From a virus (Duplodnaviria; Caudoviricetes), in the IMG/VR virus record IMGVR_UViG_3300029288_001872, positions 96,001-160,000 of that record: DNA of 64,000 nt; one strand, given 5' to 3'. Shown here piece after piece: positions 18,762 through 19,811 of this stretch (the stretch's first letter is position 1; each line of letters opens with the position of its first letter). The position numbers and the translations under genes were made by a program. Below the pieces are notes generated by a model. That model ran no database searches. It saw only the letters and a list, made by a program, of their open reading frames with translations, and was not told the DNA's origin.

Positions 18762-19682
18762 ATGTCTTACATTGATTTTTCTCGTCTCTTGGATTCAATT
18801 CATGTGCCGTATAAAACTTCTGGCGCAGGCATATCCAGAGACTTCATAGGCATCTATTGTCCTTTCTGCTCTAATCCACATGGCCCCAGAGGAGGATTCA
18901 GCCTAGATAAAGGATTCTATTCCTGTTGGCGTTGTGGTCATCACAAACTTGTGGATGTGATTAAGGCTTTAGCAAGATGCACAGAAAAGAAAGCCTATGA
19001 ATTAATTCAAGCCCATAAAACCAACAATCCTACCTATCCCTTACAAGACCATTCGTTTGAAAGAAACTCTTCGCTACGAGGCTCTGAGGCACCCACAGGC
19101 ACCTTAAAACTGCCTGGAAATGAGTTGTCTGAAAGACACAGAAAATATTTATTAGATAGGAATTTTGATCCTGATTATTTAATGAGTAGATATGACATTA
19201 GAGGAACAGGTGCAGTTGGTGATTTTAAATGGCGAATAATAATTCCTATTAAAGTTGATAACCAAGTGGTATCATATCAAACGAGAGATATAACGGGGAT
19301 GGCAAAAGCTAAATATCTTCCTTGTAAGAAAGAAGATGAAATTATTCCTTTTAAAAATTGTTTATATGAAATAAATTCATGTCAAGATCGTGTAGTTATT
19401 GTTGAAGGAATTTTCGATGCTTGGAGATTAGGGAATGGAGCAGTTGCTTCTTTTGGTATCCAATTCACAGAACAACAAATAAAATTGATAGTTGAAAGAA
19501 AACCTAAAAAAGTTTTTGTTTTATATGACAACGAAATACAGGCACAAAGACAGGCTAAGAAATTAGCAAATAGTTTAAATTGTTTTGTAAGCACAGAAAT
19601 TATTAATTTAAATGGTGTAAAAGACCCAGGTGATTTAACTTGGCCTGATGCTAGAGGTCTAATGCGAGAATTGATAGGTTGA
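18762..19682 (+). CDS. DNA primase (Zn finger + TOPRIM)
   Basis: CPFC...CWRC; VIVEGIFDA; LYDNE; KDPGD. Confidence 0.9.
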   Translation: MSYIDFSRLLDSIHVPYKTSGAGISRDFIGIYCPFCSNPHGPRGGFSLDKGFYSCWRCGHHKLVDVIKALARCTEKKAYELIQAHKTNNPTYPLQDHSFERNSSLRGSEAPTGTLKLPGNELSERHRKYLLDRNFDPDYLMSRYDIRGTGAVGDFKWRIIIPIKVDNQVVSYQTRDITGMAKAKYLPCKKEDEIIPFKNCLYEINSCQDRVVIVEGIFDAWRLGNGAVASFGIQFTEQQIKLIVERKPKKVFVLYDNEIQAQRQAKKLANSLNCFVSTEIINLNGVKDPGDLTWPDARGLMRELIG

Positions 19683-19702
19683 CACATATTTTTTAATTTT
19701 TT

Positions 19703-19811
19703 GGTATGGTGAGGTGTGGTGAGGTATGGTATTGTAAGGTTTGATAAGGTGGGGTGTGGTAAGGGTTCTTGGAATAATATAAAATTAAATCTATTATTCC
19801 AAGAACAGTTT
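19703..19811 (+). ncRNA. GGT-NN pentamer array (12 units) with 3' hairpin; candidate gapped guide RNA
   Basis: GGT AT/GGT GA/GGT GT/GGT GA/GGT AT/GGT AT/TGT AA/GGT TT/GAT AA/GGT GG/GGT GT/GGT AA, then a 15-bp stem (19765-19779 with 19792-19806) and AGTTT. Confidence 0.85.

Follow-up and report, generated by a model that had tools for sequence, protein, structure and literature searches.

What is a row of GGT-headed pentamers doing behind the primase gene of a large tailed phage, and why do its variable dinucleotides read like codons of that very gene? The question is raised by the virus record IMGVR_UViG_3300029288_001872 (hereafter G000; a genome of 189,632 bp), of which we analyzed record positions 96,001–160,000, a stretch of 64,000 nt that we call the window and to which positions refer unless stated otherwise. 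A DnaG-type primase gene is followed here by twelve 5-nt units of the form GGTNN and a hairpin. Arrays of this form are known from VIPR systems, which combine a small Cas7-like RAMP protein (Vipr) with vrRNAs of about 100 nt that consist of 9–16 GGY/NN pentamers and a structured 3′ tail (10.64898/2026.04.26.720920). The NN dinucleotides pair with double-stranded DNA on either strand and without a protospacer adjacent motif, skipping every third target base, usually the wobble position; the threshold for a target is 80%, and self matches of 80% or more were not found in VIPR genomes (10.64898/2026.04.26.720920). One Vipr protomer covers each unit, with the GGY hidden, and R-loops in SUSP1 appear to form in the direction from the 3′ tail to the 5′ end (10.64898/2026.04.26.720927). 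Solo vrRNAs are known on satellites and on phages that lack vipr, their self-match scores being lower than their scores on relatives, and VIPR-null phages carry solo vrRNAs aimed at relatives (10.64898/2026.10.15.759431). We propose that the array and its tail (19703–19822) are probably a solo VIPR vrRNA gene of this kind, aimed at a sibling phage's type-A primase allele and lying beside the carrier's own, non-matching copy.

The array and its match to the primase gene

The scaffold of the array is strictly GGT in 10 of the 12 units, unit 7 reading TGT and unit 9 GAT, and the NN series from unit 1 to unit 12 is AT GA GT GA AT AT AA TT AA GG GT AA. The tandem 5-nt GGY/NN units of VIPR vrRNAs are thus present in a number within the published range, and they are followed by a structured 3′ tail made of a junction unit, a hairpin and a T-run (Table 1), a layout found in at least 13 sibling arrays as well; the letters directly 3′ of the hairpin are CAGTTTCATTGTTTT. 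The genome also encodes a Vipr, and the array is solo in the sense of Lopez et al., the nearest RAMP gene being 39 kb away. A search of Rfam returned no family for the array, only sub-threshold hairpin look-alikes, and scanning for promoter and terminator consensus sequences yielded no usable element for it, the candidate boxes at 19671–19707 being absent from the list. No RNA run appeared among the sequencing runs listed as containing this stretch.

The open reading frame (ORF) upstream matches Pfam Toprim_2 (3e-7) and DNAG_N and has distant tblastn matches to annotated phage DNA primases. Positions 1 and 2 of its codons at 19587–19622 read GT AG AC GA AT AT AA TT AA GG GT AA, so that units 4–12 of the array equal the first two positions of nine consecutive primase codons (19596–19622), with the skipped bases falling on the codon wobble positions. 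Units 1–3 do not match, and the five bases by which the carrier's own allele (V-S-T-...) differs from the guide all lie in these three 5′-most units. The end of the site and the start of the array are 80 nt apart, on the same strand.

Several comparisons indicate that this run is specific. It exists only at period 3 and on the plus strand; at the other spacings compared (periods 2, 4, 5 (elsewhere) and 6) and on the opposite strand no run exceeded 6, that is, the 1-nt skip fits better than other skip lengths. When the order of the units was permuted (400 + 400 permutations) and both strands of the whole genome were searched, the longest run was 7 with 12 units or 8 with 13 units, and never 9. 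The plain base count at the carrier's own primase, 19/24 (79%), is not significant because 35% of the permutations reach it, and the evidence therefore consists of contiguity and of the position next to the primase. In a deliberately weak test, confined to the first ten units and to 370 nt upstream, the primase match scores 15/20 (P about 0.017); the same test gives an upstream match at P<0.05 for 8 of the 18 arrays counted in this phage and a sister phage together, so that likeness to the immediately preceding gene is a family trait.

These figures bear directly on the view that the array is no guide at all, and that a G-rich repeat such as a quadruplex, an iteron or origin, or an attenuator resembles the primase by chance. 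It is true that the array adjoins a replication gene, has GG every 5 nt and reaches a base count that is commonplace among permutations, but a run of nine in none of the 800 permutations, its specificity for one period and one strand, the anatomy common to a whole family and the sibling arrays that match the other phage perfectly over 9–12 units leave this view hardly any credit. The quadruplex, iteron and attenuator readings were rejected on the run statistics and the family anatomy.

An earlier sequence-only reading of this DNA had described the twelve-unit GGT-NN series, the 15-bp hairpin at its end, the nine identical in-frame dinucleotides about 80 nt upstream, the three differing first units and a RAMP gene at a distance of 39 kb, and all of these details were borne out, the last by a Cas7-like RAMP at 58992–59651. 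The gapped code that it had proposed coincides exactly with the published VIPR rule (GGY/NN, 1-nt skip, wobble) and hence is not novel, having been published in 2026. Its further claim, that the array spells a variant of the primase, stands for units 4–12, which are identical, and for units 1–3, which are seen in relatives, and is less secure for units 11–12, which may belong to a handle.

Sibling arrays and the extent of the guide

For comparison we used the whole genome of a sister phage, IMGVR_UViG_3300014204_000113 (G001, 188 kb). GGTNN arrays number nine in G000, eight of them besides the one behind the primase, and about eight in the sister. They have a common build, with GGTNN units, purine-rich last units (typically ..GT AA GA, loosely conserved), a GGGNN junction, a perfect hairpin of 12–16 bp and the motif ACA(G/A)TTT; the structure of the hairpin is conserved among them and its sequence is different in every copy. 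Three of these arrays spell, for the gene that they directly follow, the allele found in the other phage. The array at G000 genome position 1116 (own_1116) matches a sister gene in 12/12 units, beginning with unit 1, and its last five units are unpaired; the array at sister position 68927 (sis_68927) spells the G000 clamp gene 9/9, again with the last five units unpaired; and own_136845 (window 40845–40929) spells the end of the sister's clamp gene 9/11, both misses being Leu TTR/CTN switches. It follows from these pairings that arrays of this family carry the guide from unit 1 on and end in a non-pairing handle of two to five units; with such a handle at the 3′ end, base scoring over whole arrays is too insensitive. 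The synonymous Leu TTR/CTN switches are an escape from a wobble-proof code without a change of protein. In the array behind the primase, units 1–10 are certainly guide-like, and units 11–12 (GT AA) may represent the conserved 3′ handle, as in the sister's arrays, rather than guide.

Behind the clamp gene the two phages carry different guides, each of which spells the other's clamp (window 40845–40929 and sister 68865; sister 68927 and G000 136738). The clamp site of the sister also takes in TTGA-type boxes that directly precede the array of the sister itself, and to judge by this overlap guides may silence each other's promoters. One sister array is of another kind, with eleven GGCNN units (87680–87734), a repetitive NN series (TA GG TA GG ...) and no hairpin tail.

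Measured against its siblings, the array behind the primase could be taken for a relic in decay, once a guide gene but no longer functional: it has 12 units, fewer than any other of the set, the scaffold of two of them is degenerate, its handle is one unit shorter than in sibling arrays, and only one assembled genome is known to contain it. The 15-bp stem, however, has no mismatch and the T-run is intact, single degenerate units occur in longer arrays of both phages, and the normal range is 9–16 units (10.64898/2026.04.26.720920). We consider decay very unlikely.

The primase allele spelled by the guide

Read as codons, the guide gives (I/M)(D/E)V followed by EIINLNGVK, which is the same 'type A' Toprim half as that of the carrier. 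Public protein collections yielded three allele states, the matches of P0002, P0017 and P0018 being inferred from protein. The allele VSTEIINLN(G/K)VK is present in this phage, where it matches the guide at 19/24, and in P0002 and P0017; the allele MNVEIINLNGAK of P0018, known as protein, reaches by back-translation at most 10/12 units and 22/24 bases; and the allele GI(E/D)TEIITLLKYD of the sister cluster matches at about 14/24. Within this allelic series each of units 1–3 (AT GA GT) is seen at the homologous codon of relatives, as I-E or I-D in the sister cluster and as M-x-V in P0018. As each of the twelve units has a counterpart in one or more natural alleles, units 1–3 are primase-derived and not promoter filler. 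Protein-based searches for the locus returned the type-B sister as the sole close relative, and the primase matches in GenBank phages are all below 26% identity.

History of the locus

The sister phage also reveals how the locus was assembled. Identity to it is 90–100% up to 19260, drops to 53–78% over 19260–19680, is nil over the array and returns to 86–95% from 19837, which delimits a mosaic block that comprises the divergent Toprim half of the primase and the vrRNA gene. Among contigs from four landfill and groundwater sequencing runs, X5, from a landfill, shares these breakpoints (19257 and 19837). The presence of the array is polymorphic: in the sister the ATG of the next gene follows two bases after the primase stop and there is no array, and a landfill contig of a closer, type-A relative is also devoid of it, just 16 letters separating 19669 from 19848 there. 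What is left of the former primase end is preserved beyond the vrRNA tail (Table 1), and at the corresponding place a landfill relative has ..CCTATTAGGATAAAAC and then ATG. The guide gene therefore arrived by recombination together with a replacement gene end, and the former end was displaced downstream. Another mosaic junction is found directly upstream of the primase, where about 1.4 kb of the sister genome (45595–47053), including an ORF of 463 amino acids (aa), is missing at window 18715–18756.

A second self site downstream of the primase

The window contains a further, unique site that resembles the guide, at 20999–21037. Its score is 18/20 over units 1–10 (P about 0.02 by permutation) and 21/26 (81%, P about 0.05) overall, and the sister has it in identical form. 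It covers the start region, ribosome-binding site and ATG of a 59-aa HTH_17 gene (21024–21203), right after the boxes TTGACA-17-TAAACT. Depending on the units counted, then, this site matches at 19/24, 21/26 or 18/20, as against 19/24 at the carrier's own primase and at most 22/24, from protein only, in P0018.

Such a site raises the possibility that the RNA is a self-directed regulator, acting either on the end of its own primase gene, where it would stop read-through downstream, or on the HTH_17 start region. The nine 3′-proximal units do pair with the own primase, R-loops nucleate at the 3′ end in SUSP1, and the 18/20 match lies over a transcription start, a ribosome-binding site and an ATG in a stretch that is identical in the sister. 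Nevertheless, no self matches of 80% or more were seen in VIPR genomes (10.64898/2026.04.26.720920), the bases skipped at 20999 are out of wobble phase, a perfect match there would destroy the ribosome-binding site, the P value is marginal, and the adjacency seen in 8 of the 18 arrays favors the primase as the source of the guide, all of which makes self-regulation distinctly improbable.

Two Vipr subfamilies and one class of guides

The sole RAMP detected in G000 is a Vipr-type protein of 219 aa. The Foldseek matches seen at E ≤ 0.001 are Cas7-family RAMPs only (Csm3, Cmr4/6, Cas7-11 and type VII Cas7), with probabilities of 0.97–1.0 and modest TM-scores (0.35–0.47), and sequence searches around the array cluster at the end of the genome found no further RAMP. 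The neighboring vap-like gene encodes a protein that has 416 homologues, belongs to no Pfam family and shows weak fold matches of winged-helix type; a fold and Pfam search found no nuclease fold or nuclease domain in it, and searching PDB by sequence with both proteins gave no match. The 2.4-kb cassette of this Vipr, with its staggered, hairpin-less arrays delimited by GGCAGG, is absent from the sister. The arrays that flank vipr (window 59700–60370 and 60890–61265) have a degenerate scaffold (G-N-Y). Proteins of the 219-aa type are abundant, with 6,954 in the database at E ≤ 0.001 and the best 120 all 59–73% identical, a conservation that is unusual for a family described as highly diverse.

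The Vipr of the sister is a different protein of 188 aa (G001 126575–127141), 22% identical to the 219-aa protein (hhalign probability 73%, E 3e-5), and the latter is its closest homologue in G000. At the syntenic place in G000 (genome positions 9474–9715, outside the window) there is a 68-aa zinc-ribbon-like ORF, followed by a 104-aa gene kept at 91% identity. The two sibling phages thus have different Vipr subfamilies and the same class of hairpin-tailed guides. Hairpin-tailed arrays are the only class in the sister apart from the GGCNN array at 87680, so the cognate Vipr type appears to be missing from G000, and the cognate Vipr of the array at 19703–19762 may itself be absent from its carrier.

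This observation invites a variant in which the guide is a Trojan or 'hired gun'. The hairpin-tailed RNAs would be cognate to the 188-aa Vipr, lost here, and would act only in mixed infections, either by loading a rival's own Vipr against the rival's genes or by soaking that Vipr up. Consistent with it, the sister has GGTNN arrays of the hairpin-tailed kind only, together with a 188-aa Vipr, the syntenic place in G000 holds the 68-aa ORF and no homologue closer than the 219-aa Vipr exists there, the latter sits on a cassette of its own with arrays of another build, and VIPR-null phages with solo vrRNAs against relatives have been published (10.64898/2026.10.15.759431). On the other hand, strict GGCNN or GGY-NN units flank 62 of 80 related viral loci of the 219-aa Vipr type, which could accordingly load GGU units; strict GGYNN arrays lie beside the gene in the IMG/VR relatives of both Vipr types, so that either could in principle read GGU units. 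Moreover, four hairpin-tailed arrays are specific to G000 and have intact hairpins, which suggests ongoing function in this lineage. We regard action solely through a rival's Vipr as unlikely, if less so than self-regulation.

Table 1. Features of the array locus and of the vipr locus (window positions)
Feature	Position	Strand	Basis or remark
DnaG-type primase gene, 306 aa, zinc-finger N-terminus, Toprim C-terminal half	18762–19682	+	Pfam, tblastn
Mosaic block: divergent Toprim half of primase and vrRNA gene	19260–19836	+	Flanks about 90–100% identical to sister
Own copy of guide target site, VSTEIINLNGVK	19587–19622	+	In frame with primase ORF
Candidate promoter, TTGATA-17-TAATTT or TTGACA-17-TGGTAT (overlaps unit 1)	19671–19707	+	Read from the sequence
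vrRNA units, twelve GGTNN (5 nt each)	19703–19762	+	Sequence read
GGGTT junction unit, opens tail hairpin	19763–19767	+	GGGNN in 14/18 arrays of both phages
Tail hairpin	19765–19806	+	15 perfect pairs, 12-nt loop, -17.9 kcal/mol
ACAGTTT-type motif and T-run, likely transcript end	19807–19822	+	ACA(G/A)TTT after stems of other arrays
Remnant of old primase end, TTATTAGGATGA	19834–19845	+	Aligns with sister's primase end and stop, right before next gene's ATG
Second partial self site	20999–21037	+	Units 1–4, 7–10 and 13 match perfectly
Vipr-type RAMP, 219 aa	58992–59651	+	AlphaFold2 pLDDT 82; sole RAMP detected in genome
vap-like partner gene, 162 aa	60402–60890	+	Neighbors vipr

Proposed explanation

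If 19703–19822 is a solo vrRNA gene directed against a sibling's type-A primase, it would be transcribed as an RNA of about 105–120 nt ending at the hairpin and T-run, on whose GGU scaffold Vipr protomers would polymerise, one per unit, presenting the NN dinucleotides. These would pair with double-stranded DNA, every third base being skipped, and the bound complex would block transcription. The RNA would be aimed at closely related rival phages with a matching primase allele, the carrier's own copy scoring 79%, just under the 80% threshold of the VIPR papers. Guide and non-matching allele would be inherited together within the 580-bp recombinant block, so that recombination between co-infecting relatives could not easily yield a self-targeting genome. 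Expression, loading, silencing and the competitive role are what we infer by analogy with the published systems.

A number of points weigh against this explanation. The first concerns the target. The exact 12-unit gapped pattern has no match in IMG/VR, JGI metagenomes or GTDB genomes, so that the primase allele for which the sequence-only reading had suggested a gapped search did not come to light there; the 10-unit pattern has no match in IMG/VR and five in GTDB, all in unrelated genes or non-coding DNA and none in a primase. The best natural allele, that of P0018, is known as protein only and beats the carrier's own by one unit. Units 11–12 are equal to the non-pairing handle GT AA (GA) of other arrays, and if they are unpaired the primase match shrinks to a run of 7 (genome-wide P about 0.08, still adjacent); with a ten-unit guide, furthermore, the site at 20999 (18/20) outscores the primase site. 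The second point concerns the insensitivity of the carrier, whose own primase retains the nine 3′-proximal units: given that R-loops in SUSP1 begin from the 3′ side, mismatches in the 5′ units may leave its gene incompletely protected. In addition, P0002 and P0017 carry V-S-T and are devoid of the array, so that the V-S-T allele did not necessarily arrive with the guide. Lastly, G000 lacks the 188-aa Vipr type with which hairpin-tailed arrays are paired in the sister, and two scaffold units of the array (TGT and GAT) are degenerate. A pattern anchored on TGTTTT gave a single match, in non-coding DNA of a giant-virus metagenome-assembled genome, which we dismissed as chance.

Comparison with known systems

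The closest counterparts of the array are the VIPR vrRNAs of Escherichia phage SUSP1 and a Pseudomonas fulva prophage, type II (10.64898/2026.04.26.720920, 10.64898/2026.04.26.720927), with which it shares GGY/NN pentamers in the range of 9–16 units, a structured 3′ tail, a predicted length of about 100 nt, the 1-nt skip at the wobble position, a phage-borne location, genes of relatives as probable targets and a small RAMP in the genome. The tail differs, being here a simple perfect hairpin with a T-run whose sequence is different in every copy, whereas that of SUSP1 is an invariant pseudoknot. In contrast to both published cases, moreover, the last 2–5 units make up a purine-rich handle that stays unpaired in sibling arrays, the gene directly follows the homologue of its target, at a distance of 39 kb from vipr, and the Vipr that adjoins such arrays in the sister phage is absent.

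The solo vrRNAs of F5 satellites and of VIPR-null SUSP1-like phages (10.64898/2026.10.15.759431) are similar in standing alone, more than 20 kb from any vipr, and in apparently matching the carrier less well than its relatives; the role proposed for them is likewise in a conflict of related mobile elements, possibly by means of another element's Vipr. Those solos are located at a former vipr locus and target vipr, other vrRNAs, satellites and host REP decoys. In G000, unlike there, the solos number nine and are scattered over the 190 kb of the phage, each following an ordinary gene (primase, clamp, epimerase and others) and spelling the rival allele of that gene.

VIPR has been known only since 2026, chiefly from Enterobacteria phages whose guides cluster at the vipr locus, and the two landfill phages of 190 kb add natural data in which guides are dispersed as single-gene cassettes behind ordinary genes. 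The guide tends to adjoin the carrier's slightly different copy of the target, so that weapon and insensitivity are genetically linked, and hairpin-tailed guides persist in a phage in which one Vipr subfamily has been swapped for another. A broader interpretation, which is conceivable although we think it less likely than not, is that the scattered hairpin-tailed guides are linked cassettes of a guide plus an insensitive allele, passed among sibling phages through recombination where the targeted gene ends; having survived the loss of their cognate 188-aa Vipr here, they would work through a rival's Vipr or through the newly acquired, 22%-identical Vipr cassette. Spread at the end of the targeted gene would explain both the duplicated primase end and the 580-bp mosaic block. 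If true, it would amount to RNA-guided allele exclusion without a nuclease, with guides that are interchangeable between very distant Viprs.

In layout the locus resembles the free-standing homing endonuclease genes of T-even phages (seg and mob, responsible for marker exclusion), which are selfish, lie between genes and act on the neighboring gene of relatives that lack them, the carrier's own allele being insensitive through a few substitutions, and which likewise show local mosaicism and presence/absence polymorphism. The likeness ends with the layout: no nuclease was found here, the vap-like protein having weak fold matches of winged-helix type, and copying into a rival would need recombination without a programmed cut. 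Virus-borne mini-CRISPR arrays, too, are minimal guide loci employed in conflicts between related viruses, with the effector encoded elsewhere. The array corresponds to them as a minimal viral guide locus against close relatives with its effector elsewhere, but the architecture and code of the RNA are different, CRISPR spacers being contiguous and accompanied by repeats and a leader.

The known VIPR mechanism is left unchanged by the array at 19703–19762, in which we see, on balance, a further example of a known phage-against-phage weapon beside the gene that it targets. What the present analysis adds is the nine-unit 3′ self-match, the duplicated gene end with its breakpoints, the caveat of the handle, the site at 20999 and the swap of Vipr subfamilies; and with nine contiguous 3′ units retained in the carrier's own primase, the locus offers a natural sequence pair that makes the mismatch tolerance and the directionality of VIPR testable.

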